Origin: an uncultured candidatus Porisulfidus sp.
GTDB taxonomy: Bacteria; Pseudomonadota; Gammaproteobacteria; Poriferisulfidales; Oxydemutatoraceae
Direction: 5' to 3'
Length of the DNA stretch: 64,000 nt
Assembly (NCBI GenBank): GCA_965215125.1
Contig: OZ244052.1
Coordinates: 480,001 to 544,000 of the forward strand
Shown here: piece after piece, positions 26,827 to 56,845 of the stretch
Layout: every line of letters begins with the position of its first letter
Position numbering within the stretch: the stretch's first letter is position 1
Program-made: the position numbers and the translations under genes
Notes under the pieces: generated by a model
The model's input: the letters and a program-made list of their open reading frames with translations, nothing else
Database searches by the model: none
What the model was told of the DNA's origin: nothing

Positions 26827-27522
26827 TCAAATTGATAGACAACTACGGTCTATGGTCAAACCCGGCCCCATCGTTGAAGAGACACTTACTTTCTTCAAGT
26901 ATTGGCCTTTAGCAGAAGCCGGTTTTGCTTTAATTACATCACTCAATAGAGTATTGAAATTCTCTTCCAGTTGTTGTGCAGAAAAGGTTCGGCTACCTAT
27001 ACTACAGTGCAATATGCCCGCTTTATCTACGCGATATTTGGCTCGCCCCGCTTTTATACTACGCACCGTCTCGCCGATATCCTTGCTCACCGTACCGTCC
27101 TTAGGGTTCGGCATCAAACCGCGAGGTCCTAATATCTGTCCTATACCGCCGACCACCGGCATTACATCGGGAGAAGCAACAACCGCATCGTAATTAAAAT
27201 CTCCTTGCTTCGCTTTCTCCACCAAATCTTGCAAGCCGACTACATCGGCACCCGCTGCTTCGGCTATCGTGACCTGCTCGCCTTGGGTAAAAACCGCAAC
27301 TTTCACCTGCTTACCTAAACCGTGCGGCAAAGCGGTTGAACCGCGGACCAGCTGATCGTTCTTGCGCGCGTCGACACCCAGCCTAATACTCACATCTATA
27401 GACTCGTCAAACTTAACGCTTGAACATTCCTTCAACAGATCAAAGGCTTCCGATAAGGAATAAAATTCTTGCCTTTCGCACTTCTCTTTTATCGCCTTCA
27501 TTCTTTTTGATAATCTAGCCAT
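26827..27522 (-). CDS. rplA: 50S ribosomal protein L1
   Basis: KFDES, LPHGLGK, LGPRGLMPNPK, STMGPG. Confidence 0.98.
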   Translation of the reverse strand: MARLSKRMKAIKEKCERQEFYSLSEAFDLLKECSSVKFDESIDVSIRLGVDARKNDQLVRGSTALPHGLGKQVKVAVFTQGEQVTIAEAAGADVVGLQDLVEKAKQGDFNYDAVVASPDVMPVVGGIGQILGPRGLMPNPKDGTVSKDIGETVRSIKAGRAKYRVDKAGILHCSIGSRTFSAQQLEENFNTLLSDVIKAKPASAKGQYLKKVSVSSTMGPGLTIDRSCLSI

Positions 27523-27524
27523 AA

Positions 27525-27956
27525 CTAAATTCCCTCAACCGTGATACCCATACTGCGCGCACTACCGGCAATGGTTCTAACCGCTGCGTCGATCTCCGCC
27601 GCAGTCAGGTCGGCTTGCTTGGTCTTGACTATTTCCTCTATTTGCGCACGAGTGACTTTGCCCACCTTTTCCATATTAGGCGTACCGCTACCTTTAGCGA
27701 TGCCGGCAGCTTTTTTCAACAACACCGTTGCCGGGGGCGATTTAATAATGAAACTAAAACTGCGGTCATCGTATACCGTAATCACTACCGGCACCGGCAT
27801 TCCTTTTTCAAAGTCACCGGTGCGACCGTTAAATTCCTTACAAAAATCCTGTATCGGCAAGCCGTGCTGCCCCAAAGCAGGACCCACCGGAGGGCTTGGG
27901 TTAGCCTCGCCTGCGGGTATCTGCAACTTTATATAAGTTTTTACTTCTGCTGCCAT
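27525..27956 (-). CDS. rplK: 50S ribosomal protein L11
   Basis: [15 protein letters not shown] and IAGSARSMG. Confidence 0.98.
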
Positions 27957-27967
27957 ATTCTATGCCT

Positions 27968-28504
27968 CTAAATCTTCTCAACCTGATTAAAGGTAATCTC
28001 CACCGGGGTAGAACGGCCGAAAATCTGCACACTCACCTGCAGCCTATTCTTTTCGTAATCCACCTCTTCGACAACGCCGTTAAAATCGTTAAAAGGCCCT
28101 CCGGTCACGCGGATTACCTCACCAACCTCATACAGTATCTTGGGTTTAGGCTTGCTTGCATCTTCTTTTATACGACTGATGATACTCTTAATTTCCTTAT
28201 CCGGAACCGGTGTAGGCCTGCTCGGTGAACTACCGATAAAACCTACAACTCTAGGCACACCGTTCACCAAATGCCAGGTGCGTTCGTCCATAACCATCTC
28301 TATTAACACATAACCGGGAAAAAATTTTCGTTCCACTTGATGTTTTTTTCCCGAACGCATCTCAATCACGGTCTCTTTGGGTATCATAATTTCGCCGAAA
28401 CAGTCCTCCATTTTGTCTCGCTGTACTCTCTCTTCCAAAGATTTCTTTACCGAACTCTCGTATCCGGAGTATGTCTGCACTGCGTACCATTCCATTTTAG
28501 TCAT
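27968..28504 (-). CDS. nusG: Transcription termination/antitermination factor NusG
   Basis: WYAVQTYSGYE, KFFPGYVL, GPFNDFNG, IFGRSTPVE. Confidence 0.98.
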   Translation of the reverse strand: MTKMEWYAVQTYSGYESSVKKSLEERVQRDKMEDCFGEIMIPKETVIEMRSGKKHQVERKFFPGYVLIEMVMDERTWHLVNGVPRVVGFIGSSPSRPTPVPDKEIKSIISRIKEDASKPKPKILYEVGEVIRVTGGPFNDFNGVVEEVDYEKNRLQVSVQIFGRSTPVEITFNQVEKI

Positions 28505-28507
28505 TAT

Positions 28508-28867
28508 TCACTTAATAACGATTTGCATAAACCAAGCTAAAAACAAATCCAGTGCCCACAAAAAGAGAGCCACTATTAAAACAACGGCAAAGATCAGTAA
28601 AGTTGTATGAATGGTCTCGGCCTTTGTAGGCCATACCGTTTTTTGCAACTCAACCTGCGCACCCTGCAAAAAAATCGCCGTATTCTTACCTGGTTTTGTT
28701 AAAAAGAATAATACGACAGCGACCACAACCATTGCGAGTATAGCAAGCACGCGATACAGCAATATCTCATCCGACAAATAATAGAATAGGGCAAGTCCTA
28801 CCGCTAAAGACAGAAACACACCTGCCAATTTAATGCGGTCCATCAATAAATCATTCGTGTTTGCCAT
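28508..28867 (-). CDS. secE: Preprotein translocase subunit SecE (3-TM form)
   Basis: ELQKTVWPT motif; lies between tRNA-Trp and nusG. Confidence 0.93.
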   Translation of the reverse strand: MANTNDLLMDRIKLAGVFLSLAVGLALFYYLSDEILLYRVLAILAMVVVAVVLFFLTKPGKNTAIFLQGAQVELQKTVWPTKAETIHTTLLIFAVVLIVALFLWALDLFLAWFMQIVIK

Positions 28868-28902
28868 TGTATGTCCTCCTTAATTAAGTCGCCGAACTCC
28901 GG

Positions 28903-28975
<73 letters not shown>

Positions 28976-29033
28976 ATTATGACCCCATAAACTATACATC
29001 ATAGAAAACGCTGCAATTTATTCAGCTAACAGT

Positions 29034-30227
29034 TTATTCTATGATTTTAGCTACTACGCCTGCGCCTACCGTGCGACCCCCTTCCCTGATCGCAAAACGC
29101 AAACCCTCTTCCATCGCAATAGGTCCTATTAAACTCACCGCCATCTTTACATTGTCCCCCGGCATCACCATCTCTACACCGGCCTCCAATTCTACCGCAC
29201 CGGTCACATCCGTCGTCCTAAAATAAAACTGCGGTCTGTAGCCTTTGAAAAACGGCGTGTGCCGACCGCCTTCCTCTTTAGACAATATATACACCTCCGC
29301 CTCGAACTTCTTGTGCGGCGTGATCGAACCCGGCTTGCACAACACCTGACCTCGCTCTACTTCCTCTCGCTTCGTCCCTCGCAACAACACCCCGACATTG
29401 TCTCCGGCACGACCTTCGTCCAACAGCTTCCTGAACATCTCTACCCCCGTACAGGTCGTCTTGTTCGTGTCTCTTATTCCTACAATCTCTATCTCGTCTC
29501 CTACTTTCACAATCCCTCGCTCTATGCGACCGGTCACCACCGTCCCCCGTCCCGATATCGAGAATACATCTTCCACCGGCATCAGATAGTCTCCGTCTAT
29601 CGCTCGCTCCGGCTCCGGGATATACTTGTCCATCTCCGTTATCAACTGCTCTATCGACGGCACACCCATCTCCGAGCTGTCTCCTTCCAACGCCTTCAGT
29701 GCCGAACCCGTCACAATCGGAATATCGTCTCCCGGAAACTCGTAGTTGGACAACAACTCGCGCACTTCCATCTCTACCAACTCCATCAACTCCTTATCGT
29801 CTACCATGTCCGCTTTGTTCAAATACACGACGATATGCGGCACACCCACTTGGCGTGCCAACAAAATATGCTCTCGCGTCTGGGGCATCGGACCATCCGC
29901 CGCACTCACCACCAAAATCGCACCGTCCATCTGTGCTGCGCCGGTTATCATGTTCTTGATATAGTCGGCGTGCCCCGGACAATCCACATGCGCATAGTGC
30001 CTCGCTTCCGATTCATACTCTACATGTGCCGTCGCTATCGTTATCCCTCGCTCTCGTTCCTCCGGCGCATTGTCTATCTGCTCATACGAACGATACTCGC
30101 CGGCACCCTGCTGATCCAACATCACTTTAGTCATCGCCGCCGTCAATGTCGTCTTGCCGTGATCTACATGCCCTATGGTTCCCACATTCACATGCGGCTT
30201 CGTTCTTTCAAATTTCTCTTTAGACAT
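29034..30227 (-). CDS. tuf: Elongation factor Tu
   Basis: [36 protein letters not shown]. Confidence 0.99.
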
Positions 30228-30253
30228 AATTTATTCCTATACTAAGTTATTGA

Positions 30254-30328
<75 letters not shown>

Positions 30329-30353
30329 GAGCAAACGAGGGCCGCAAAACATC

Positions 30354-30427
<74 letters not shown>

Positions 30428-30496
30428 CATTATAACTATAACTAAAGATCCCACTACACTGCTCTTTATCATCACTTCCACTAAGCCGGCCATAAC

Positions 30497-30578
30497 TGGA
30501 GGGGGTAGGATTTGAACCTACGAAGGCATAGCCAGCAGATTTACAGTCTGCCCCCGTTGACCGCTTGGGTACCCCTCC
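30497..30578 (-). tRNA. tRNA-Tyr(GTA); 3' CCA not encoded
   Basis: GGAGGGGTACCCAAGCGGTCAACGGGGGCAGACTGTAAATCTGC..GGTTCAAATCCTACCCCCTCCA followed by GTT; has a variable arm. Confidence 0.95.
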
Positions 30579-30693
30579 ACAATTAGTGAATTGCGGATTA
30601 TCCCAAAAAATCAAGCGATTTGCAAGTATAACATATTTTTAATGTACATGCTAGAATAAAGAATAATATTGTAAAAGGGGGATATTTATAGCG

Positions 30694-31668
30694 ATGAACA
30701 ATACAAAACCACTTAAAGTAGCGATTACCGGTGCAGCCGGCAACATCGGTTATGCACTTGCTTTTAGAATTGCAAGCGGCGCGATGCTGGGTTCTCATCC
30801 CGTTATACTACGCCTGATTGAGGTCAAACAAGCCGAGAAACAACTCAATGGTGTGATGATGGAACTGGACGACTGCGCTTTTCCTTTACTCGATGCCTGC
30901 ATCGGTACGAGTGACACGGAGGCGGGTATGGAAGATGTGGATATTGCTATCCTGGTCGGATCGAAACCTCGAGGACCGGGCATGGAGCGCAAAGACTTAT
31001 TGAAAGATAACGGTGAAATTTTCAAGCGTCAAGGACAGATATTAAATGCAGTTGCATCCAGAGAAGTCAGAGTGCTCGTCGTCGGCAACCCGGCGAATAC
31101 CAACGCACTCATCGTATACCGGAATGCGCCGCATCTAAACCCCAAGCAATTTAGCTGTATGACGCGATTAGACCACAATCGGGCATTGACGATGATGGCC
31201 AAAAAATACGACACAGCCGTTGAGCAGGTAAAGAAAATGATTATTTGGGGAAATCACTCGGCAACCCAATTTCCCGATCCACTGCACTGCGAAATAGATG
31301 CAAAAGCCATACAGCCGGATCACGACTGGGTGGAACAAGAATTTGTTCCTGCAGTGCAACAGCGCGGTGCAAAAGTTATAGAAGCACGCGGCGCATCATC
31401 GGCGGGCTCTGCGGCAAACGCAATCGTCGATCATGTACGCGATTGGACCTTAGGCACCGCCGAGAACGATTGGGTTAGCATGGGAGTCGTCTCCGACGGT
31501 CATTACGGCATAGAACCCGGCATCATCTATTCCTTCCCGGTTACTACGAAGAACGGACAATGGCGTATCGTGCCCGACCTAGCGGTCAACGACTTTGAGA
31601 CTAAAATGATGTTAGAGACCGAAAAAGAATTGAACGAAGAACGTTCGACTGTTGCACACTTACTCTAA
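30694..31668 (+). CDS. mdh: Malate dehydrogenase (type 2 MDH family)
   Basis: [42 protein letters not shown]. Confidence 0.96.
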
Positions 31669-31714
31669 GTTATTTCAGTTTCTAGGGGATTTGTTATATT
31701 GTTGCGATTTACTC

Positions 31715-31745
31715 CAGGGGGTGGGGTTAATAGCCCCACCCCTGT
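31715..31745. terminator. GC-rich hairpin between convergent mdh and porin genes
   Basis: cagggggtgggg-ttaatag-ccccaccccctg. Confidence 0.7.
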
Positions 31746-31750
31746 ATACA

Positions 31751-32530
31751 TTACCAGCTACTTGATACCGAAAAAACGACTGCCTCGCAAAAATCATCGT
31801 GTAAACCATTAGCTTCGCATGCCTCGTCGGATGCATCTTGCCACGACAAATCAAATGTCAATATATCGATAGACTTGGATACACCGATTGCATAATATGT
31901 GTAATCAAATCCATCGTTAAGTTTGTCGCCATCCACATCTTGATAACCAACTTGAACATAAGGATCTACCATATCGGGAATACTGAAGCCGAGGCCACCG
32001 TGTACCCAAATCCCTGTATCATTTTCGCCATAAAAATCCGGCGAATAGGCAATGCCTATATCCGCGGATGGTTGATACTCGGTATCCCAAGTGTAGCTCA
32101 ACGCACCATAGACTTCTAAAAAGTCATAGTCATTACCTGCATCCTCATTCTGGTCGGGATAAATATAGTATAAAGCACCGACATCCCAGCCTAATCCGTT
32201 TTGGAACTCACCTGACATACCACCGTAGACATCAATTTCAAGCGACGGCGCATCGGAGGTTCCTCCATTAAACTCTAGGCTGGAAGCCCATACGCCCAAA
32301 TAGAAGCCCGATTCATGCGAATAATCAAATCCGCCCTGCAATGCCGGATCCTCGTTGGTTTGAGAAATTCCACGGTAGACATAGTCGGATGTGAGTGTCA
32401 CATTCGCGCTGAAACTATGGGGTGAATGTTCATCCGCAAAAGCGGAAGGAACATAGGTAGTAAATAATAGGAATAATAAGCCTGCGATAGAAGCCTTATT
32501 AGCCCTACTAAAAATAGATAGATATTTCAT
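31751..32530 (-). CDS. TorF/Gcw_chp-family putative outer-membrane beta-barrel
   Basis: SANVTLTSDYVYRGISQT..PALQGGFDY..SGFYLGVWAS, EIDVYGG; signal peptide; aromatic C-terminal residue. Confidence 0.85.
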   Translation of the reverse strand: MKYLSIFSRANKASIAGLLFLLFTTYVPSAFADEHSPHSFSANVTLTSDYVYRGISQTNEDPALQGGFDYSHESGFYLGVWASSLEFNGGTSDAPSLEIDVYGGMSGEFQNGLGWDVGALYYIYPDQNEDAGNDYDFLEVYGALSYTWDTEYQPSADIGIAYSPDFYGENDTGIWVHGGLGFSIPDMVDPYVQVGYQDVDGDKLNDGFDYTYYAIGVSKSIDILTFDLSWQDASDEACEANGLHDDFCEAVVFSVSSSW

Positions 32531-47216: not shown

Positions 47217-47792
47217 CTAGCGGCTTGCTTTCGCAATCGCTTCAAAATCTACGCCTTTATACATAAAGCTCTGTTTTTCAAACAGCTTGTCTCCATATTG
47301 GGTGACCCAATCTTTGTGGAAGCTCAAGGTATATTCCGGAGGCGGCATCACATTGAAAATCACATCGTATTTGTCGGTAATCTCGCCGGGCAATGCCATA
47401 TTACGCGCGTAGTGCAGATTATCGACCAAGTTGATATGCGGCACCAAATCCACATTTGCTATTGCGCCGGTCTTCGGATTGATAACTTGTGCGGTAATGA
47501 CTAAATACCCGACAAAGCCGCCCGCCGGGGTGCCCTCGGGAATAGAATCTTCGTCGTCTGCCCAATTAACTCGTGCTTCTATATGCACATGCGTTTTACT
47601 CTCCTCCAGATGGTAATTCGCCGGTGTGATCGTATCCTTAACGGCACCCTCAAAGATGAATTGTATACCCGGCTCTATCATCTCTTCGCCGATGACCAAT
47701 TCAAGTGCATGCGATTGGGTCATAAATAATACCGAAAAACACAATATAACGCCTCGGTAGAATTTATTCATCGTTCCAGTTAAAGTTTTCAT
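47217..47792 (-). CDS. Periplasmic P19/Tp34/FtrA-like iron/copper-binding protein
   Basis: Signal peptide; HVHIEARV, GGFVGYL, HYARN, PP...FHKD resemble the P19 HLEAD/PYL/HYGxN/RHxD pattern. Confidence 0.65.
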   Translation of the reverse strand: MKTLTGTMNKFYRGVILCFSVLFMTQSHALELVIGEEMIEPGIQFIFEGAVKDTITPANYHLEESKTHVHIEARVNWADDEDSIPEGTPAGGFVGYLVITAQVINPKTGAIANVDLVPHINLVDNLHYARNMALPGEITDKYDVIFNVMPPPEYTLSFHKDWVTQYGDKLFEKQSFMYKGVDFEAIAKASR

Positions 47793-47834
47793 TTATTTAT
47801 CTCCTCTATGTTGGTTTAATAATCAATGCTAATT

Positions 47835-48560
47835 TTACGCCCTTTTAAGCCAAAGAAAAACGCCTGTGGCAGAAAGGAATAGTAAAAGCAACGCTACGAA
47901 ATCGGCAATAATAATACCTGCGGTGCCGAATAGACGACCGCTGTGGAAATCAAGCAATGTGCGTTCCCAGCTTATCAAATGATTATTGGCGTGCGTAATA
48001 ATGGTTTCTCTCAAATACATCGGCACTTCCGTGCTGTTGACGGGTGCCGACCATGTTATTTGTGTGCCACTATAAACCTGCCAATCTTGCAGATATTTAT
48101 CTACCTGCCAGTTGTTGCGTAGACCGCCGATGATAATAGCACCCTCTCGGTTGTATCCTATCCTACGCATCACGGAGGGCAATCCGTTTAGAACGGAGAG
48201 CCTGTCTACTATCTCGCCGCGTTGCGATAGCAACCATAGTTTGTTATCTCCCACAATCCAAACATAGGTTTCACCCTCCACAACACCTTGTAAATTATTT
48301 AGTTCGATGTTGGAGACGGGAAGTCCGTCCATATAGAGGAAAGAGCCCGCTTGCGAAACCCAGCGCTTATCGGTCTTATAATCTACCGTATCTTGGTCTT
48401 GGATCTTCGCACCGTATAAATAACCGGACAGCGAAGACGGAATATAACGTTGATCTAAATCGAACCAATCGGTATGTTGTATTGCCAATCCCGTCATCAC
48501 GAAAATTAATAAAAATATAAAGCTTCCGATGCCTATGCTACGATGTAATTTGCGGTACAT
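47835..48560 (-). CDS. PepSY-associated TM helix domain membrane protein
   Basis: RKLHRSIG..MTGL at the N-terminus and LLDFHSGRLFG..TGVFLW at the C-terminus. Confidence 0.85.
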   Translation of the reverse strand: MYRKLHRSIGIGSFIFLLIFVMTGLAIQHTDWFDLDQRYIPSSLSGYLYGAKIQDQDTVDYKTDKRWVSQAGSFLYMDGLPVSNIELNNLQGVVEGETYVWIVGDNKLWLLSQRGEIVDRLSVLNGLPSVMRRIGYNREGAIIIGGLRNNWQVDKYLQDWQVYSGTQITWSAPVNSTEVPMYLRETIITHANNHLISWERTLLDFHSGRLFGTAGIIIADFVALLLLFLSATGVFLWLKRA

Positions 48561-48583
48561 AATCGGCTATCATACTACACGGG

Positions 48584-49114
48584 TTATGGTACGACCGATT
48601 TGTGTAGCATCAGAGCAAGCCTTGCCAGTTTGGTGACCGCACGCACCGACAAAGTAGCGCCCGAGATATTATCTATACTGCGATCAAGTTTCAAACTGCC
48701 GGTTAACTTTGCATCGGTAAATTGATCGGCAAACGAATCATAACGCACTTCCCAGCCGCGACTCTCACGAAAGATTAACACTTTGACCTCTTTTATACGA
48801 TCCGCATCGATAGAAAAACCACTGGTGATTGGTCGCTCTTTACCGATCTCTTCCAATATCCAAACACTGCGATTATCTTTAAGCCAATAGCGGATTCTGA
48901 ATTTACTATATCTATGACCGAGTATGCCTTTGATCGAATCCTTAATCGTCTGGTCGGGATAAAGCATAGAAGGCTCGGGAGGATCATCGTCGAAGTGGCG
49001 AGACACAAACGCATCCGGTGCCTCGTAAATACTCTCTATTGCCAGAAGCGGCGCGCGAGGTTGAACGAGTAATAACGCCGCACACAAATAGAAAGCCCAC
49101 TTCGATCGGTTCAC
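48584..49114 (-). CDS. Extracytoplasmic FMN-binding (flavinylated) protein
   Basis: Signal peptide, EIGKERPIT, FRESRGWEV, IDNISGATLS (SGAT flavinylation motif). Confidence 0.88.
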   Translation of the reverse strand: MNRSKWAFYLCAALLLVQPRAPLLAIESIYEAPDAFVSRHFDDDPPEPSMLYPDQTIKDSIKGILGHRYSKFRIRYWLKDNRSVWILEEIGKERPITSGFSIDADRIKEVKVLIFRESRGWEVRYDSFADQFTDAKLTGSLKLDRSIDNISGATLSVRAVTKLARLALMLHKSVVP

Positions 49115-49417
49115 CTCCCAAGCCTCCGTAAAATCAAATTCGCGTCTTAGCTCTTAAAATACCGAGGGTCTCGGAAACTTCGCGCCGACCATACATCGTG
49201 TTACAATGCCTGCGGCGGCGCGCAAGATACTCGGTTTGTTACCGAGACCCATACAAGTAAACCGTCTCATTAGTGCCGGTATCAAAGGTTTTGAGGCAAG
49301 TCGCTCCAAATGACTGGATACAAAAGACATAAAAGTATCTACCGTTTTCCGTGTCAAAGTAGCACACTTAACGTGGAGGATTGAAATACAACTACCGTTG
49401 AACACTGAAAAACGCAT

Positions 49418-49531
49418 TGAAGTCGACTCGCCTGCAAAACCCGAAGAAAAGTTATAGTTAAACGCCATTTCCCTGAAGTCGACTCGCCTGCAAAACCCGA
49501 AGAAAAGTTATAGTTAAACGCCATTTCCCTG
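49418..49531. repeat. Perfect 56-bp tandem duplication
   Basis: tgaagtcgactcgcctgcaaaacccgaagaaaagttatagttaaacgccatttccc at 49418-49473 and again at 49474-49529. Confidence 0.95.
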
Positions 49532-49533
49532 TA

Positions 49534-50973
49534 TCAAAACTCATAACCGACGCCTAAGTTGAAGCCGTCGAAGTCACTGTCGCGATCGCCTGCATTATCG
49601 TGTTCACGATCTACGAGGTCCATTTTTAGAACCGCACTCTCGCCTAAGTAATAATTGAAGCCCACACTATATTGGTCAAATTCATCTTGCGAGCGTCCAC
49701 CCTCAACATCTTCGTAGCGCGCAAAGATACCAAAATTGGGAGTCAACTTAAAAGAAGGTTCTACATACCAACCCTGTTGCTGGTCGTAATCGGCAACTTT
49801 TATCGGGTTAGGAATCCTAGTCCCGCGATTATTAGGATCTTCTATTTGAGAGTCCACATCTACATCCCAGGCGGCGTATAAAGCCCTGAGACCGAATGGT
49901 CCCCGACTGTAGACGATGTGTGCCTCATAAAGTATGGCATCGTCTACAGTGTCACGACCGATAGCACCAGTACTCCCTTGAGTGATATCCGATTGATACT
50001 GCACACTTGCTGCCAGCTCGAGACCCGGCATCCCGGTGTATTTGACACGACCGGTGAACGCAAGATCGTTGGCAGTGGCATTGGCAGTTTTTTGCCTACC
50101 CGAGCGAAAACGTAATTGAGGACTAGGTACAATCTCAGTATTTGGCACAATTGTAATAGTATCACCATCTATATCATTATCACCATTATCATCGACGATA
50201 TTAATTATAGAGGTATCTCTGCCTTCATCTTTAATAACCCTTGTGTTATAAGCTCTGGCAGGAACTTCTAATCCTTCGTGCAACGCAAGATCAATGGTAA
50301 ATCCGTTATCCATGCGATGTGTGAAGCCGATACCGCCTGCCCACCAGGTTGTCGGAACGATAACATTTTCAACGGTATTGCGTTCAACACCGTAAAAAGT
50401 CGGGGGTTCGTGAGTTTCGTTTAGAATACCGACGGGCAATAGAAAAACACCTGCGCGAGCGGTATTGCGTTCATCAAAATCATATTCTATGAAAGCCTGC
50501 TCTAGTTCAACTTCTCCCGGCTGACCGTCTCCGGCGAGCGCATGCTCTAATTCAACTTCGGAAAAAAACCTCAACCTATCGGTGAACTCATGACCGAAAA
50601 ATAGTACGAAGCGATGAAAGTCTAATTGCCTGAAATTATTACCGCTGTCCCGACTCCAGTTATTATAGTGCAGTTCACCATAACCTCCCATTGAGGTTTT
50701 GTCCCAGAAAGAAGATTGACCACCACTGTACGACTCAACTGCTTCGGCAGTCACTTCAACCGCTTGCTTATTCTCTTCCACATCTTGATCGATTGCCTCC
50801 AATTTCTGTTGCATCGATTCTAATTGTGCTTGCAACGCTCTCATCTGTTGTTTAAGTACGTCAATCTCATCTGCTTGAGCAACAGCTTGGCAAGGTGCAA
50901 TCATTAACGATAAAAACAAACCGGTCATAAAGCAATAAATTTTTGTTCGTTTCTTATTAAATAAATGTTTCAT
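49534..50973 (-). CDS. OprO/OprP-like outer-membrane porin with N-terminal coiled coil
   Basis: GGYGELHYN, DFHRFVLFFGH.F, SEVELEH, GEVELEQA, NETHEPPTFYGVERN, C-terminal GVGYEF. Confidence 0.82.
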   Translation of the reverse strand: MKHLFNKKRTKIYCFMTGLFLSLMIAPCQAVAQADEIDVLKQQMRALQAQLESMQQKLEAIDQDVEENKQAVEVTAEAVESYSGGQSSFWDKTSMGGYGELHYNNWSRDSGNNFRQLDFHRFVLFFGHEFTDRLRFFSEVELEHALAGDGQPGEVELEQAFIEYDFDERNTARAGVFLLPVGILNETHEPPTFYGVERNTVENVIVPTTWWAGGIGFTHRMDNGFTIDLALHEGLEVPARAYNTRVIKDEGRDTSIINIVDDNGDNDIDGDTITIVPNTEIVPSPQLRFRSGRQKTANATANDLAFTGRVKYTGMPGLELAASVQYQSDITQGSTGAIGRDTVDDAILYEAHIVYSRGPFGLRALYAAWDVDVDSQIEDPNNRGTRIPNPIKVADYDQQQGWYVEPSFKLTPNFGIFARYEDVEGGRSQDEFDQYSVGFNYYLGESAVLKMDLVDREHDNAGDRDSDFDGFNLGVGYEF

Positions 50974-51588: not shown

Positions 51589-51681
51589 AACCCCTCCACA
51601 GGAGAGGAATTAGATTGTGCAAGCACAACACGTTACGGGCGGACATGTTAGTCCGCCCCTACAAGCTCAATCGGCGGTTCT
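51589..51681. repeat. Composite A+C+B palindromic repeat
   Basis: CCCCTCCACAGGAGAGGAAT ... CGGGCGGACATGTTAGTCCGCCCCTACAAGCTCAATCGGCGGTTCT. Confidence 0.8.
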
Positions 51682-51683
51682 AA

Positions 51684-53261
51684 TTAGCTGTCAAAAATTA
51701 TTCTGAAACCTAGATACGGTGCCTTGAACGAAGCAGGAAGAGGATTTTCAAAATCAATGCGGGCGGTTGCTTCTCCCGGCAGTATGTAATTACCGCCTTT
51801 GGCAATAATCGCAAAACCTTGTCCGGCGGTGCTTAGGCTTTGTGTCCATTCCGAAACATTGCCACCCATATTGATGACACCGGCAGCATTGATATCGCCG
51901 TTCTGCTCCAGAGCGGAGAGCGGTTTTATCAGTTGTCTCTCGGCAGTGGCCACATAGTCGGGATTAAAGGTGTTGCCCCAAGGATAAGAGTAGCTACCCA
52001 TTGAAGAGGCGGCAATCCATTCGAAATTATTCGGCAATCTTCCGCCTGCCCAATTTGCAAATGCATAAGCCGACCACCAATCTATATCGGTTGCCGGCAA
52101 GTCGTCGTTTTGATAATCGTCCAACCACGGCGGACTATAATCGTGTTCTTCGGGCTCCTTCTCGTTTGCATAAAGCCCGTAGCGCACCAAGGGATCGTTG
52201 ACGAAACGTCTGTATTGCGCTCGGGTCACCTCGTGGCGCAATATCCGAAAATCGTTATGGCGATGTTTTTTATCAACCAGTTTTCCAATGATATCGAGTT
52301 GTTTGCGGGATAACCCCGACCCCAATAGTCCCGGTATCTTAGCGTCGTCGGGGAGACCGATACGATACTGCCCTGCATCTACACGTACCGTTTGCGGATG
52401 TTTTTCGGTCCACGGTATTTTCTTCGGTTGCTCGTCGTAAACACATCTGAAACTCACATAAGGAGAACGATACTTCGCTTCCACGGTACGATAAAAATTG
52501 TTTAAGCTATAAATCTCGTAGGGTTTGTTATATGCGTTGCCACCGTGTATACTCGGCTTCGCTTCCGCGTCAATACCTTGCGCCCATTCGGATGCGACAT
52601 TACCCAGATTGTGTATACCCTGCGGTGTATCCATCTCCTTATGCAAACCGCAGCGTTGTGCGGCGTTGAGCCTAGGGTCCAAATACGGCCAACCCTCGGA
52701 GTTGAAGTCGTTCCCCCACGGATAAAGCCGACCTTCGGAACCGCTTGCAATCGCAATCCATTCCGTACGCGTCGGCAGTCGCCCACTGCTCGCTTGACAA
52801 TAAGCATACGCGTCGTAATAGCTAACTCCGTTTGCAGGCGCATCCAAACGGCCGCTAATTTTGTGGTCTCGGCTTATGCTCCTATAAGACCAATTTTCAG
52901 GTTGTTCGGGATGTGCTATATCGGTCGGGTTATAAAGTGCATACCATTTTTCAAAAGTATAGAAATCCTTTTGCCGTACTTCGCATTGATCCACCCATAA
53001 AGGAGGCAACTGCACATTGCGCTCGGATTCCTTGAATATCGGATCAAAAGAGCGGATGCGCCCGAAGGCATATAGATACTCGCTCAAAATTGCATCCAGT
53101 TGCGCACCGCGCGCTTGAGTGGTTTGATCATCTTGGGATATATCAACCTGCACCGTATCAAATTGATAAAAAGCGGTACGCAGTTTATATAAACTAAATA
53201 CCGATAGTGCAATGATTATTGCTGCTACGAGTAGACTCCCCAGTACAGAGGCCGGCTTCAT
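51684..53261 (-). CDS. Membrane-anchored protein with two tandem FGE-sulfatase (SUMF1/C-type-lectin fold) domains
   Basis: N-terminal TM; two copies of EV...P...[VI][SD][YW]..AYA[YF]...GRLP...EW...YPWGN...G..N[LM]..N.SEW...GGN..FR. Confidence 0.85.
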   Translation of the reverse strand: MKPASVLGSLLVAAIIIALSVFSLYKLRTAFYQFDTVQVDISQDDQTTQARGAQLDAILSEYLYAFGRIRSFDPIFKESERNVQLPPLWVDQCEVRQKDFYTFEKWYALYNPTDIAHPEQPENWSYRSISRDHKISGRLDAPANGVSYYDAYAYCQASSGRLPTRTEWIAIASGSEGRLYPWGNDFNSEGWPYLDPRLNAAQRCGLHKEMDTPQGIHNLGNVASEWAQGIDAEAKPSIHGGNAYNKPYEIYSLNNFYRTVEAKYRSPYVSFRCVYDEQPKKIPWTEKHPQTVRVDAGQYRIGLPDDAKIPGLLGSGLSRKQLDIIGKLVDKKHRHNDFRILRHEVTRAQYRRFVNDPLVRYGLYANEKEPEEHDYSPPWLDDYQNDDLPATDIDWWSAYAFANWAGGRLPNNFEWIAASSMGSYSYPWGNTFNPDYVATAERQLIKPLSALEQNGDINAAGVINMGGNVSEWTQSLSTAGQGFAIIAKGGNYILPGEATARIDFENPLPASFKAPYLGFRIIFDS

Positions 53262-53422
53262 AGCCTTTTTTTGCCTCCTTTACCTAGGAGCTTACCGCCT
53301 TTCAGACCGCCGCCTCTCATTAGACCGCCGCCTCTCATCAGACCACCGCCCATCAATCCACCACCACCGGATCTGCCTAGGAACCTAGATAGCAAACGAA
53401 ATAACATAAACATTCCTCTCAT
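53258..53422 (-). CDS. 54-aa cationic glycine-repeat peptide (not in the ORF track)
   Basis: GGAGG-AAAAATT-ATG; MRGMFMLFRLLSRFLGRSGGGGLMGGGLMRGGGLMRGGGLKGGKLLGKGGKKRL*; its stop overlaps the FGE gene start (ATGA). Confidence 0.75.
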   Translation of the reverse strand: MRGMFMLFRLLSRFLGRSGGGGLMGGGLMRGGGLMRGGGLKGGKLLGKGGKKRL

Positions 53423-53492
53423 AATTTTTCCTCCGTGCTTTTATCGTAAATCCATTATAAACAGATTGGCAGTAAAATGGTGACTACGCAAA

Positions 53493-53519
53493 CAACCACC
53501 CTGTCAGGCGCGCCTGCCA
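53493..53519. repeat. Partial family A repeat
   Basis: CAACCACCCTGTCAGGCGCGCCTGCCA. Confidence 0.7.
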
Positions 53520-53532
53520 ATCCACTGCCCAT

Positions 53533-55269
53533 CTATGCGGTAGTTCCGATGAATCTGCGCAACACGCCGAACAGTAGCAACAACGCAGCAAAACCGTAGA
53601 ATAGGAGTGCTTCGTTTTCCTTTCTATAGGGAACGCTGGGATAATGCGTCATCACCTGCGTTTGGGCAACGGTTACACTGTTTTGATCAGCCGCAAACCG
53701 CAAACTACCGTCTCGATTGATCGCCGCATAAACGAAAGCCAGCAGATAATCGTCCCTTTGCGGTGATACGATAGTTGCAATACGCCACTGATATTGATCG
53801 GGATCGGCTTGTTTGCGAGGCAATAAAATAATACTGTCCTTATCTAGGTTTATTTTTAACCCTTTATAAATCGCCGGATAAAGTCCCACATGCATTCTAA
53901 CGACGGCATCCCCGGGTAAGTCGGGAAAAGGCATTTGTTGCGAATTATTCAACAGCAAAGCATTCTCCAGCAGTTGGTTCGGATGCACCGCCAATGCCGT
54001 CACATCGTTATCCTCGGTTTGCTGCTCCACATACAAAGGATTTTTATCGTCACCGGATGTCGGGAACATCACGCTTTTAAGATACTCGTAGAAGTTGATC
54101 TCTTCGTCGCTCAATGTCGGCATCATTGCCGCAGGTAGCAATATGTCGTCTGCAAACTTGAAATTTTGCAACATCAAATAATTTCCTTCGCCGACAGAAC
54201 GTTGTGCTTTTTCCATAAATTGAAAAAGTGCCGCTAAAATGTTTGCGTATTCTAGTTCCTCGCCGTTCTCGTCGCCCTCCGACATATTGAGATATACATA
54301 CTCCTGTTCTTTCTCCGAAGACGACTTTGCCGAAGACGGCGTTGCAGTTCTAAACCGCATGACACTCGGGAAATTACTACTTTGGTTCCCTCGCCCTAAG
54401 CTCTCCGCCATCATCTTTGATAAAGCATCAAACATCTCATCGGCAGGTTCGTCCGATCCGCCCCCACTATACTCTTCGCTTTGAGAGTCGGCATTCTCGG
54501 CATCGTAAGCGAGATCGTCAAAGGGATAATTTTCATCGCTGGTCACCGCACCAAGCGAAATATCGGCAGGCATATCTTCCCATATATTCTCATTATTGCC
54601 TCCCTCGCCTTCGTTTTCTCTAAACTGCTCGGAGTTACCCGGTTGTTCCGAGTCATCTTCGCTTGTTTCATCGGATTCGGCAATTACTTCTCCCGCACCG
54701 GGTTCGCTTTTGTTGTCATCCTCTACAGGATTGCCGTCATAACCGATGAAGTGCCAATGGCGAGGCATCGGCCCGTAATCTCCGATGATAGACATAGTCA
54801 AATAAAACGTACGGATATCGTAAATATCTATGCGTATATAACTTCTTTGTATAGGATTCATCTTTGCCAAAAATTTATCAAACGCATTATCGGGTTGCAA
54901 TAACTCATCGCGGCTGAATCTCTGCTTTGTGTAATAATCCTGTATATAATCGGAGTGCAGTTCGATAATCGGCATAATAGAAGGATGCGGATTGGCATCC
55001 ATAGGACTGTTGACATAATCGTGTAGCCTAGCCGGCTTAGAGGTCGGCAGACCGTTCATCACCACCGAGGTTGCTAAATCGCGGCTGAGCAATACCGATA
55101 TATCTTCTACTTCGCTGATACGCGCCTCTTCTTGTTCGTGCTCGATCATCATCGTAAGCACGATCAAAATGATAATCATCGCAACGCTGTTTGCCAGAAT
55201 GTCCGCTAACGCGATGCCGGCAAAGCCGGGAAGTAGGCTTCCTTTTCGTGATTGCGCCGCCGTTGCCAT
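53533..55269 (-). CDS. Hypothetical 578-aa membrane protein with MotB/ExbD-like N-terminal TM (Asp), acidic linker and C-terminal TM
   Basis: IALADILANSVAMIIILIVL; D/E-rich middle region; C-terminal LLFYGFAALLLLFGVLRRF. Confidence 0.6.
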   Translation of the reverse strand: MATAAQSRKGSLLPGFAGIALADILANSVAMIIILIVLTMMIEHEQEEARISEVEDISVLLSRDLATSVVMNGLPTSKPARLHDYVNSPMDANPHPSIMPIIELHSDYIQDYYTKQRFSRDELLQPDNAFDKFLAKMNPIQRSYIRIDIYDIRTFYLTMSIIGDYGPMPRHWHFIGYDGNPVEDDNKSEPGAGEVIAESDETSEDDSEQPGNSEQFRENEGEGGNNENIWEDMPADISLGAVTSDENYPFDDLAYDAENADSQSEEYSGGGSDEPADEMFDALSKMMAESLGRGNQSSNFPSVMRFRTATPSSAKSSSEKEQEYVYLNMSEGDENGEELEYANILAALFQFMEKAQRSVGEGNYLMLQNFKFADDILLPAAMMPTLSDEEINFYEYLKSVMFPTSGDDKNPLYVEQQTEDNDVTALAVHPNQLLENALLLNNSQQMPFPDLPGDAVVRMHVGLYPAIYKGLKINLDKDSIILLPRKQADPDQYQWRIATIVSPQRDDYLLAFVYAAINRDGSLRFAADQNSVTVAQTQVMTHYPSVPYRKENEALLFYGFAALLLLFGVLRRFIGTTA

Positions 55270-55273
55270 CGCT

Positions 55274-55798
55274 TTACTGCCTCTTGATAACGCGGTCTAT
55301 ATAAGGCGGGATATCGTCGAGCGAGACCGACTTCAATAATTCGCGATCGGCGATAATCCAACCTATAGTCAATTTGTCCCGTATCGTAGGCATTGTCAGA
55401 CGCATACATTCTCGGGCTATTGCCATCGTTCTAACACTGCCTTCCATGATAATAAAGATGAGTTGCTGTTTGGGCTTACCGTAAATCTTTCTGGCGTAGC
55501 TCGCAAAAGGACTATTGGGCGCGCAAATCTGGTCTTGTTTTAAGACATCGCCACTTTCCACAATGCGCAATTCATCGGGAAAAGTCAGTATGGAATAACC
55601 GGTGCCCTGCACACCCCAACTCACTTTGTAATCCCCTTCGGTGTTTATCCCCTCCAAACGTTCCTGTAACGAAAGCTGAGAAAAAGTGTTTATCAGTATA
55701 AACAAAACCAAAAGCAGAGCAAAAACACCGCCGAAAATCTCAACCATCGGCGCGTTGTTTTTCTCTTGATCCTTGAGGCTATCATGACGACGCATCAT
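55274..55798 (-). CDS. Hypothetical ExbD/TolR-like single-TM protein
   Basis: Basic N-terminus, then NNAPMVEIFGGVFALLLVLFILI (compare ExbD NxxPxxD..L.LL..F); 6 bp downstream of the TolQ-like gene. Confidence 0.55.
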   Translation of the reverse strand: MMRRHDSLKDQEKNNAPMVEIFGGVFALLLVLFILINTFSQLSLQERLEGINTEGDYKVSWGVQGTGYSILTFPDELRIVESGDVLKQDQICAPNSPFASYARKIYGKPKQQLIFIIMEGSVRTMAIARECMRLTMPTIRDKLTIGWIIADRELLKSVSLDDIPPYIDRVIKRQ

Positions 55799-55804
55799 TT
55801 CATC

Positions 55805-56845
55805 TTAAGGTCTAACAGCGAGTATCCGGTTTTCGTAGTTCGTTAGCAGATTGTTCTCCCATCGCTGTATGATGGTTTGTAACAAAGTCAACACGATGCT
55901 CAAAGACAAAGCAATCAATGTTGTATCAAAAGCAATTCCCAACGGGGCTATCGCATCGCCCAACTGATTGGAAAGATTGGCTAAGCCTTGCTGCTCGCCG
56001 ATAATCTTTTGTATACCGTCGGATGCAAGCGAGATACCGTAGACGGTACCTATAAAACCCAAAATAGGAATAGACCAATTGAAATAACGAGGCAAAATAT
56101 AGAAATCCGCCGACTTTTTCCAGATCAAATCAATATAGGTATCCTTCGTTACGGAGTTTCGATCGTCCAGCAAGCGATGGTAAGTGCGCATCAACAACGA
56201 GCGGTCGGGCTTGTTGATCAGCCGCTGCTCGTTCCATAGCGTATAGCTCTTGCTTAGCAACAGGATCAGACCCCAGCAGAACAGTAGAATAGTGAGCGGC
56301 GGTATAAACCCGCGAGCCAAAAACTTATTCGTCACTACTATCAGATCCGGATAACGAACCGCAGTGTTATAAATCATCAGCAGTATCGTCGTAGATAAAA
56401 TAATCGCAACCGCCAATGTCAGTACTAAGGGAGGACCCGAGAGTATCGACTCAAGTTTGCGCACCAAATCCTGCTGATATTCCGAGGAGGTGTTATGGTT
56501 GAGTAGTATATAAAATATATACAACGCAATGACCGAACTCAATAACGGCAGAGACTTCTCGGGCGTATAACCGTCGGATAGCAAAACCTGATTATTGAGC
56601 AACGGGATGAATACCTGATAAGTAACGATTAGGCTAATGGCAATCAAAGACAATAATATTAAAAAGCTCAACACCTTGAGCATAGTCTGTTTCTTTAACA
56701 TCAGTCCGGCAACCGACAATAAAGCAATCGCTAGACCTACTCCCAAACCGCCATTCGCAGAATAGCCTATGTTAATGCCCAAACTGATAAACGCGGCGGG
56801 GAATAGTACAAACGATGTGATAATAATAATAATTTGGTTCAACAT
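55805..56845 (-). CDS. MotA/TolQ/ExbB proton-channel family protein with extra N-terminal TM helices
   Basis: WSIPILGFIGTVYGISLA and LGIAFDTTLIAL signature helices. Confidence 0.85.
   Translation of the reverse strand: MLNQIIIIITSFVLFPAAFISLGINIGYSANGGLGVGLAIALLSVAGLMLKKQTMLKVLSFLILLSLIAISLIVTYQVFIPLLNNQVLLSDGYTPEKSLPLLSSVIALYIFYILLNHNTSSEYQQDLVRKLESILSGPPLVLTLAVAIILSTTILLMIYNTAVRYPDLIVVTNKFLARGFIPPLTILLFCWGLILLLSKSYTLWNEQRLINKPDRSLLMRTYHRLLDDRNSVTKDTYIDLIWKKSADFYILPRYFNWSIPILGFIGTVYGISLASDGIQKIIGEQQGLANLSNQLGDAIAPLGIAFDTTLIALSLSIVLTLLQTIIQRWENNLLTNYENRILAVRP

Follow-up and report, generated by a model that had tools for sequence, protein, structure and literature searches.

To our knowledge, only a handful of 5:2 ion-driven motors are understood, namely those of flagellar stators, the Ton and Tol systems, gliding and the type 9 secretion system (T9SS), and Zorya. 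In the GldK/L/M/N (PorK/L/M/N) system of the T9SS, a 5:2-type motor with a long periplasmic partner meets a non-enzymatic protein of the formylglycine-generating enzyme (FGE) fold, and the AglR-AglQ-AglS proteins of Myxococcus presumably combine one TolQ-like subunit with two different TolR-like subunits. TolQ-like motors with a heterologous pair of transpore-helix (TPH) vWA proteins have also been predicted (Williams-Jones et al., Mol Biol Evol 2025, PMC12204202). Here we describe an operon of an uncultured candidatus Porisulfidus sp. that lies on the minus strand of a 64,000-nucleotide stretch of contig OZ244052.1 (the window, by whose positions features are numbered throughout) and consists of genes g1 to g5. 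It is a real and tightly conserved four-gene operon, g1-g2-g3-g5, accompanied by one genus-specific small gene, g4, and it most likely encodes a new variant of the proton-driven membrane motors that serve flagella, Ton and Tol, joined to a lectin-like protein. As such it would add a sharply delimited family to the 5:2 ion-driven motors, unusual in the five extra transmembrane (TM) segments of its channel, its doubly anchored axle protein, a second TolR-fold partner with an optional acid and a tethered lectin-like protein. New in this work are the split between glutamate and alanine in g2 set against an invariant aspartate in g3, natural g3-g5 fusions, a genus-limited g4 that moves with g5, split operons, the size of the family and its frequency in a genome sample.

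The five genes were taken from the open reading frame (ORF) list of the window, and their TM segments were called by a Kyte-Doolittle hydropathy scan. The 346-aa product of g1 (55805..56845) is a putative channel subunit of the MotA/TolQ/ExbB superfamily with about eight TM segments, and g2 (55274..55798) codes for a 174-aa protein with a single TM followed by a predicted TolR/ExbD-like periplasmic fold. The 578-aa protein g3 (53533..55269) is membrane-anchored at its N- and C-terminal ends, g4 (53258..53422) is a basic glycine-rich ORF of 54 aa, and g5 (51684..53261) encodes a 525-aa protein with a TM anchor and two domains of the FGE-sulfatase fold, which is C-type-lectin-like. By their coordinates, g1 and g2 are separated by 6 bp, g2 and g3 by 4 bp and g3 and g4 by 110 bp, while g4 and g5 overlap by 4 bp in an ATGA that is also visible in alignment A5. 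The co-oriented minus-strand ORFs, the two short gaps and the overlap are all present as the initial annotation of this DNA had described them, and so are the motifs it quoted, PILGFIGTVYGI and AFDTTLIAL in g1, NNAPMVEIFGG in g2 and IALADILAN in g3.

Relatives of g1 were collected by a pattern-plus-tblastn scan of one genome per species, in which 80 loci were kept of 147 relatives, and the partner genes at these loci were identified by tblastn with the proteins of the window together with an ORF-level listing. Downstream of g1, g2 is present in 75 loci, g3 in 74 and g5 in 64, in the same order throughout; two of the 64 g5 matches are cut at a contig end, and ten loci on short contigs end before g5 could appear. 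In the six loci without the g3 motif, g3 is either absent at the locus or missed by the pattern or at a contig end. In many loci g2 begins within or directly after g1 and ends directly before g3, and 33 of the 64 g3/g5 junctions are overlaps, 26 of them by 4 bp and 7 by 1 bp. Since the same gene order recurs in dozens of genomes, the g1-g2-g3-g5 arrangement is far more than chance, and the idea that the genes co-occur across genomes is upheld for most of the 80 loci. When the 1,238 ORFs of these loci were clustered, no other gene was found in more than 12 of them, barring two antisense clusters over the operon that we read as shadow frames; hence, the conserved unit consists of the four genes g1-g2-g3-g5.

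The module is also retained when it is broken. In four genomes (those of loci L025, L048, L049 and L056) g1 stands alone, with no g1 in the ~1 kb upstream of g2, and g2-g3-g5 are found together elsewhere in the same genomes. In two congeners (L014 and L015), gatCAB follows g3, and an intact g5, 92-93% identical and without stops, lies 285 kb or ~1 Mb away. The splits thus fall at g1/g2 or g3/g5 with all parts kept, which indicates that the module can be cut yet retained. In two species of the genus (L014 13319-13500 and L097 1181-3075; congeners G001 and G004) the operon is thus broken between g3 and g4, and the repeat-bearing spacer between these two genes seems to be a rearrangement point.

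The distribution of the operon is patchy. Matches to g1 were obtained in all 18 other genomes of the window's own family, a full-length match in 1 of 11 genomes of the sister family, and no match in the 11 genomes of two further families of the order. At E <= 1e-10, g3 is found in 14 of 400 evenly sampled genomes of the class, which belong to about a dozen families. A full HMMER profile search of 1.84 billion representative proteins returned 165 g3 relatives at E <= 0.001, of which 156 remain at E <= 1e-10 and 133 at E <= 1e-30; with so few relatives, most of them at strong E values, the g3 family is small with sharp edges. In the g5 tree, one row titled Deltaproteobacteria (Myxococcota) falls within gammaproteobacterial rows, and each order label requires 2-3 changes, which suggests some transfer. 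A Spirochaetales-titled contig also carries g1-g3. The record titles of 22 of the 80 loci name Oxydemutator(aceae), Porisulfidus, Poriferihabitaceae or Spongiihabitans, the remaining titles being generic. According to two published studies, Spongiihabitans and Porisulfidus are known sponge symbionts (PMC12988363), and Spongiihabitans and Oxydemutator are among the dominant species of a sponge (PMC11685487). For part of the family the connection with sponge symbionts stands on firm ground, and a restriction to sponges is a lead. Many of the carriers belong to lineages called sponge symbionts in the literature, so the operon is a candidate host-association factor.

The assignment of g1 relies on intermediates. 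The Pfam family MotA_ExbB (PF01618) matches 13 of 19 g1 homologues at E <= 0.01 (best 3.4e-5), and some close homologues have been named MotA/TolQ/ExbB family proteins by NCBI. In the part of g1 with the last two TM helices, residues 253-336 share 41% identity (E 6e-14) with a 259-aa TolQ-like protein of the same genome, which itself passes PF01618 at E 4.2e-12 and is the only second match in the genome with g1 as protein query. The genome has six PF01618-like regions, among which g1 ranks sixth, being the most divergent and under the cut-off. By this transitive evidence g1 can be counted as a MotA/TolQ relative, in agreement with the initial annotation. Threonine T267 (in PILGFIGTV) and T308/T309 (in AFDTTLIAL) do not vary among 19 diverse sequences and recur in the motifs detected across the 80 loci; we take them to be the pore threonines of ExbB/TolQ. 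TolQ has three TM segments, and g1 has six strongly hydrophobic segments ahead of its cytoplasmic part, so that the extra N-terminal TMs noted earlier are present, albeit five in number and not about four.

For the two partner proteins, the likeness to TolR is one of fold. The AlphaFold2 model of g2, built from 32 sequences (pLDDT 80.9), consists of a long TM-plus-helix and an alpha/beta domain, in keeping with the single N-terminal TM called by hydropathy. The top two Foldseek rows for this model are the ExbD periplasmic domain 8pek (prob 0.91, E 0.09) and TolR 5by4. In the Foldseek-independent VIA search, TolR 5by4_A comes first (Z 7.3, rmsd 2.8, 81 aligned), 1.5 above the next row, which is the H. 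influenzae TolR 2jwk (Z 5.8). A TolR-like fold of g2 is hence likely on the strength of the model. Its cysteines C92 and C131 are invariant, as is the pair F22-G23 at the start of the TM helix. In g3, hydropathy and alignment A3 place one TM at the N-terminus and a second at the C-terminus, the latter with a basic tail. The AlphaFold2 model of g3 (pLDDT 72.7) comprises a TM helix, a confident alpha/beta part at ~90-176, a disordered stretch at 177-300, a likewise confident helical-plus-beta part at 300-548 and a final helix at 549-577. The linker (~residues 177-300) is acidic, with 36 D+E against 4 K+R in 124 residues. The top row of the VIA-wide search is again TolR 5by4_A (Z 6.4, rmsd 3.5, 87 aligned, residues 56-176), while a Foldseek search with the whole model gave nothing clear (best E 0.083) and the ESM Atlas no usable match. 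A TolR-like fold of g3 is plausible, and structure searches of the two models lean towards a TolR/ExbD-like fold after the N-terminal TM in both g2 and g3. Histidines 83, 105, 171 and 173 of g3 (in LHDY, ELH and HWH) are invariant or nearly so and cluster in the TolR-like domain, with HWH invariant, and a metal site at this cluster is conceivable.

The two partners differ in the acidic residue of their N-terminal TM. Asp23 of g3, in the motif ALADILAN, is invariant in all 31 sequences of alignment A3 and is an aspartate in 74 of the 74 loci that have the motif. At the position of Glu20 of g2, a motif count gave glutamate in 46 loci, alanine in 27 and serine in 2, the two serine cases being possible pattern noise, and the position was not found in 5 of the 80 loci. 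An invariant TM acid, as expected for both partners by the initial annotation, is therefore confined to g3, and a rotor of two acid-bearing partners is not general, given that Glu20 is replaced by alanine in 27 of 75 loci. It may well be, at a likelihood we place a little short of even, that the pore pair is a g3 homodimer instead of the g2:g3 heterodimer proposed in the initial annotation, with g2 placed beyond the pore and acting as a regulator or plug. The invariant acidic residue found in g3 only, together with the frequent alanine in g2, fits this arrangement. However, g2 keeps the invariant F22-G23 packing motif and a TolR-like fold, in many loci its gene directly adjoins or overlaps g1 and directly adjoins g3, a spacing that suggests production in matched amounts, and heterologous TolR-like pairs have been reported for related motors in the main text of PMC12204202. 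On balance, the roles of g2 as the other pore helix and as a partner outside the pore appear about equally probable, with the outside position a shade ahead.

A further alternative keeps the motor and changes its output. Like the ExbB-ExbD-TonB and TolQ-TolR-TolA systems, g1-g5 would combine a channel of the superfamily, a TM-aspartate partner with a TolR/ExbD-like fold and a long periplasmic linker. The operon could thus be a Ton/Tol-like energizer whose target is an outer-membrane protein encoded elsewhere, with g3 as both TonB/TolA-like transducer and TolR-like subunit and g5 as an accessory. The TolQ-like and TolR-fold parts and the long periplasmic linker of g3 speak for this reading, and other MotA_ExbB paralogues in the genome indicate that such systems are in use. 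However, the C-terminal end of g3 is formed by a TM and a basic tail and not by a free domain of the TonB/TolA type, neither g3 nor the flanks gave a Pfam match to TonB_C or TolA, and no receptor gene is conserved nearby in the 80 loci. The operon also differs from Ton and Tol in containing no TonB, TolA or Pal/TolB gene, in the failure of g2 and g3 to match the ExbD sequence model, and in having two TolR-fold partners and an FGE-fold protein. A Pfam scan of the flanking ORFs from ~45.9 to 61.2 kb likewise confirmed, for the ORFs covered, the earlier statement that no TonB, TolA, OmpA or flagellar family is encoded here, and no OmpA-like peptidoglycan-binding family was detected by Pfam in g2, g3, their homologues or the flanking ORFs. 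We therefore consider the Ton/Tol-like alternative unlikely. The Agl-Glt system shares with g1-g5 the combination of one TolQ-like and two TolR-like subunits. In contrast, g3 is four times longer and anchored at both ends, and no conserved neighbour, and hence no Glt-type gene, was found beyond the four genes, although no search aimed at Agl/Glt models was made.

The fourth protein of the core, g5, matches the Pfam family FGE-sulfatase (PF03781) at E 1.5e-48 in two stretches and has an N-terminal TM at residues 6-24 by hydropathy, and its description as a tandem FGE-fold membrane protein is thus accurate. Its relatives by sequence in the PDB are SUMF2, FGE, EgtB and OvsA (E 2.9e-8 to 4.7e-4). 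The best of them is SUMF2 1y4j (E 2.9e-8), which we take to be a non-catalytic FGE paralogue. Domain 1 has four invariant cysteines (C93, C155, C204 and C273), as would suit a protein with disulfide bonds in the periplasm. Among 30 sequences, no conserved cysteine follows the GGN motif in either domain, the position, near the C-terminal end of the domain, at which the catalytic cysteine pair of FGE presumably sits. Since there is, in addition, no DinB-type domain in g5 according to Pfam and SUMF2 is the nearest solved relative, g5 probably serves in binding or as a structural component and not as an enzyme. These observations bear on a non-rotary alternative, in which g5 would be an FGE-fold enzyme with a periplasmic substrate, and g1 would conduct protons or serve as a scaffold in its regulation or assembly. 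In NCBIfam, domain 2 of g5 is matched best by the FGE-fold parts of SenA (E 2.8e-19) and EgtB (E 7.5e-17), far below the cut-offs, and these matches, together with the many invariant residues of g5, lend the idea some credit. Against it stand the absence of a conserved post-GGN cysteine and of a DinB-type iron domain and the closeness to SUMF2 1y4j, and also the invariant aspartate of g3 and threonines of g1, which point to proton-coupled mechanics, so that we regard it as very unlikely. In pairing a 5:2-type motor with a non-enzymatic FGE-fold protein, the operon resembles the T9SS of Bacteroidota with its GldK. In contrast to GldK, g5 scores 19.4 bits against the GldK model TIGR03525 with a cut-off of 350 and has a TM anchor and not a lipoprotein signal, and no GldL/M/N family was reported for g1-g5 by Pfam or NCBIfam.

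Natural fusions connect g5 to g3. Nine longer matches to the g3 profile were scanned with Pfam. A tandem FGE part follows the g3 part in P0165 (1118 aa) and in P0245 (824 aa, N-terminally truncated), and no Pfam family was found in the other seven. Residues 606-1118 of P0165 align to g5 with 37% identity (E 3e-109), and P0165 and P0245 are 61% identical, which makes it unlikely that the fusion is a single assembly error. At the fusion junction the last TM of g3, a short arginine-rich loop and the first TM of g5 follow each other as a hairpin. This layout fits a cytoplasmic location of both the C-terminus of g3 and the N-terminus of g5, which we infer for the separate proteins. The fusions argue that g3 and g5 sit side by side, and they support the earlier suggestion that the FGE protein is coupled to a motor partner. 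In the lineage of P0165 and P0245 the middle linker of g3 is glycine-rich, with long GGGAGG runs, and not acidic as in the Porisulfidus genus, where an acidic g3 linker and a separate basic glycine-rich peptide, g4, are found. A further candidate fusion, a 985-aa open frame at L101, was rejected as an upstream open stretch in high-GC DNA.

Hence, we hypothesize that the operon encodes a 5:2-type proton motor of the inner membrane, of the kind of MotAB, ExbBD, TolQR, GldLM and ZorAB, in a variant joined to an FGE/lectin-fold protein, and we hold this view with moderate confidence. By homology, five copies of the TolQ-like g1 would assemble around a pore lined by a ring of threonines. Inside this pore would lie the N-terminal helix of g3, carrying the invariant proton-binding Asp23 and followed by the TolR-like periplasmic domain. 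As a second, different TolR-fold subunit, g2 would be paired with g3 in the pore or bound beside it, its own acid being dispensable. Past the long disordered linker and a family-specific C-terminal domain, g3 is predicted to re-enter the membrane, where its last TM would adjoin the N-terminal TM of g5, and this contact would keep the tandem non-catalytic FGE/lectin-fold domains of g5 close to the motor on the periplasmic side. When protons pass through g1/g3, g3 would be moved or strained and, via g3, also g5, so that the work may act on a ligand in the periplasm or envelope. Directly observed are the gene set and its conservation, the conserved residues, the likeness in fold and the natural g3-g5 fusion; pentamer formation, stoichiometry, proton coupling, rotation and output are inferred.

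Several lines of evidence speak for this motor model. Asp23 is retained in 74 of 74 loci, and the structure searches rank TolR first with g2 (Z 7.3) as well as with g3 (Z 6.4). Also, g1 is homologous to TolQ-type channels and keeps T267 and T308/T309 invariant. The genes are syntenic, are retained after splitting and occur as g3-g5 fusions. Finally, a paralogous TolQ-like motor operon in the same genome, described below, likewise includes a membrane-anchored FGE-fold protein. The cytoplasmic parts of all four proteins are small, which speaks against a role in signalling or as an effector. Several observations weigh against the motor model. The match of g1 itself to PF01618 (E 0.0038, 17.4 bits) falls below the cut-off of 22.9, and the g1 family profile retrieved no solved chain from the PDB by sequence. 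No ExbD/TolR/MotB sequence model is matched by g2 or g3; the ExbD models of Pfam match none of 32 g2 homologues and none of 31 g3 homologues, and neither the g2 profile nor the g3 profile A3 found an ExbD/TolR chain in the PDB by sequence. BLASTP and hhalign detected no significant likeness between g2 and g3, so that a common origin of the two would be a matter of fold only. The fold matches are themselves middling, with Z under 8 and a Foldseek E of 0.09; the TolR row of g3 lies within 1 Z of unrelated long-helix rows, and the re-examined Foldseek list for g3 contains common alpha/beta folds only (Z 4.3-5.6). To these are added the alanine at Glu20 of g2 described above and the finding that no peptidoglycan-binding domain or outer-membrane partner is conserved nearby, either in the 80 loci or among the flanking ORFs. 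As the operon has no peptidoglycan-binding or outer-membrane part, the proposed motor probably acts inside the periplasm, its work being spent on g5 or the ligand of g5.

The double anchoring of g3 also allows a bolder version of the motor model, which as a whole we regard as distinctly unlikely. The operon would be a self-contained proton-driven winch for life inside animal hosts, in which the N-terminal helix of g3 is a fixed axle within the g1 ring while its C-terminal helix and the g5 anchor ride on the outer extra TMs of the turning ring. Rotation would reel in the ~120-residue linker and switch the lectin-like domains of g5 between binding and release states, and the ligand would be host-derived and periplasmic, such as a sulfated glycan. 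We know of no described 5:2 motor with both ends of one polypeptide on stator and rotor.

The least probable of the alternatives, a Zorya-type anti-phage or conflict system in which the motor would be an envelope sensor and the FGE-fold domains sensors of invaders, can draw on weak PADLOC/NCBIfam matches to ZorA (E 0.0057 to 0.06) and ZorB (E 0.036), given by g1 and g2, respectively, and on a patchy spread across families with signs of transfer, typical of defence genes, but these matches are far under the cut-offs (12.4 bits against 100) and reflect the shared TM core only, ZorC/D/E-like or other effector domains and sizeable cytoplasmic domains are absent from the four proteins, and the neighbouring genes vary and are mostly housekeeping at this locus. 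The individual scores are ZorA1 E 0.0057 (13.4 bits) for g1 and ZorB1 E 0.036 for g2 in PADLOC, and 12.4 bits against 100 for ZorA_2 in NCBIfam; the Zorya models of PADLOC and NCBIfam gave nothing for g3, g4 and g5. Thus, the operon shares with ZorAB a MotAB-like TM core, and it differs in its sub-threshold matches, in the absence of a long ZorA tail and in the absence of ZorC/D/E. More generally, the Zorya, Ton/Tol, flagellar and T9SS models of Pfam, PADLOC and NCBIfam give matches below cut-offs or none at all, and none of them fits the operon.

The closest described relatives of the proposed motor may be represented in the same genome. Outside the window, at ~27060-32100 of the same contig (L094 5061-10095), lies a second TolQ-type motor operon of four genes in a row. 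It encodes a TM-PEGA-FGE-sulfatase protein (667 aa), the 259-aa TolQ-like protein mentioned above and two different Asp-TM proteins. Each of the latter has an Asp-bearing N-terminal TM (FLDV motif), a coiled coil and a C-terminal domain, which in the first of the two is recognized by Pfam as vWA (VWA_2 E 3.4e-8). A gene for a TPR protein and a lipoprotein-like ORF lie upstream. This second operon matches the TPH-vWA motor class, as presented in the main text of PMC12204202. The g1-g5 operon resembles the motors described in that text in having a TolQ-like channel and two different partners, each with an N-terminal TM that is Asp-bearing in the TPH-vWA class, and it resembles the TPH-vWA operon of its own genome in the membrane-anchored FGE-fold protein alongside. 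In contrast to TPH-vWA motors, g2, g3 and their homologues are without vWA in Pfam and are predicted to have TolR-like folds instead, g3 has a second, C-terminal TM, and g1 has five extra TMs. The g5 protein matches the PEGA-FGE protein at E 0.022 only, so the two do not seem to be specially related. The genome thus has two TolQ-type motors, each with a membrane-anchored FGE-fold protein, and together with the T9SS the g1-g5 and vWA-type operons suggest that such motors and FGE-fold proteins are recurrent partners, for reasons that are so far unexplained. The words FGE, sulfatase, formylglycine and sponge do not appear in the main text of PMC12204202, and the g1-g5 operon is thus not described there; PMC12505986, a survey of MotAB homologues, is likewise free of sulfatase, formylglycine and vWA. 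No description of the g1-g2-g3-g5 operon was found in the literature searched, which included the main text of PMC12204202.

The glycine-repeat peptide g4, proposed earlier as a part of the system, does not belong to its core. It contains 20 glycines, 12 K+R and no D+E, has no TM by hydropathy and includes an 18-bp tandem repeat, and Pfam found nothing meaningful in g4, as in g2 and g3. The 110-bp spacer ahead of it (53423..53532, minus strand) holds a hairpin at 53479-53500 and a GGAGG resembling a ribosome-binding site. By tblastn, g4 was found in none of the 80 loci, and among the 64 loci with adjacent g3 and g5 only L013, which is of the same genus, encodes it. The overlap of g3 and g5 in most loci leaves no room for g4, and of six loci with a g3/g5 gap of at least 90 bp L013 is again the only one that carries it. 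Within the genus, g4 is kept in five of five genomes, one of them with a g5 that is only 78% identical, and all five preserve the GGAGG-spacer-ATG, the N-terminus and the ATGA overlap; where alignment A5 shows different numbers of repeats, the lengths differ by a multiple of 3 bases. Where g5 has been relocated, g4 went along directly upstream of it, as seen in the ORF list for congener G001 and in alignment A5 for G004. Hence, g4 is probably a real genus-specific small gene that is tied to g5.

Downstream of g5, a terminator-like hairpin (51591..51607, minus strand), in which 5 of 7 pairs are G-C and a T-rich tail follows, lies ~75 bp past the stop codon. It is a pattern match only; the region holds 8 terminator-like sites against 6.1 +/- 2.7 in shuffles, and neither promoter nor terminator counts are above those of shuffles. 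Pfam matches in the flanking ORFs are to porin, MsrA, GT25, AAA_14/DUF4143, FMN_bind, PepSY_TM, Fe2+ transport and KdsD-like SIS/CBS families. Downstream of the porin gene (49534-50973), a co-oriented trio of P19-type Fe2+ transport, PepSY_TM and FMN_bind genes at 47217-49114 on the minus strand looks like an iron-uptake cluster. Two overlapping small ORFs at 49154-49524 on the same strand have identical first 17 residues (MAFNYNFSSGFAGESTS), and this shared start hints at a short duplicated segment between the porin and FMN_bind genes. Elsewhere, an ORF at 1364-2266 of L094 carries the segment QTRSQPPRQATPATPPQEGNVLV three times, and a small ORF at 16842-17006 of L014 contains the similar string PPRQATPATPPKEGNVLMQT; the two strings may belong to a dispersed repeat of the genus.

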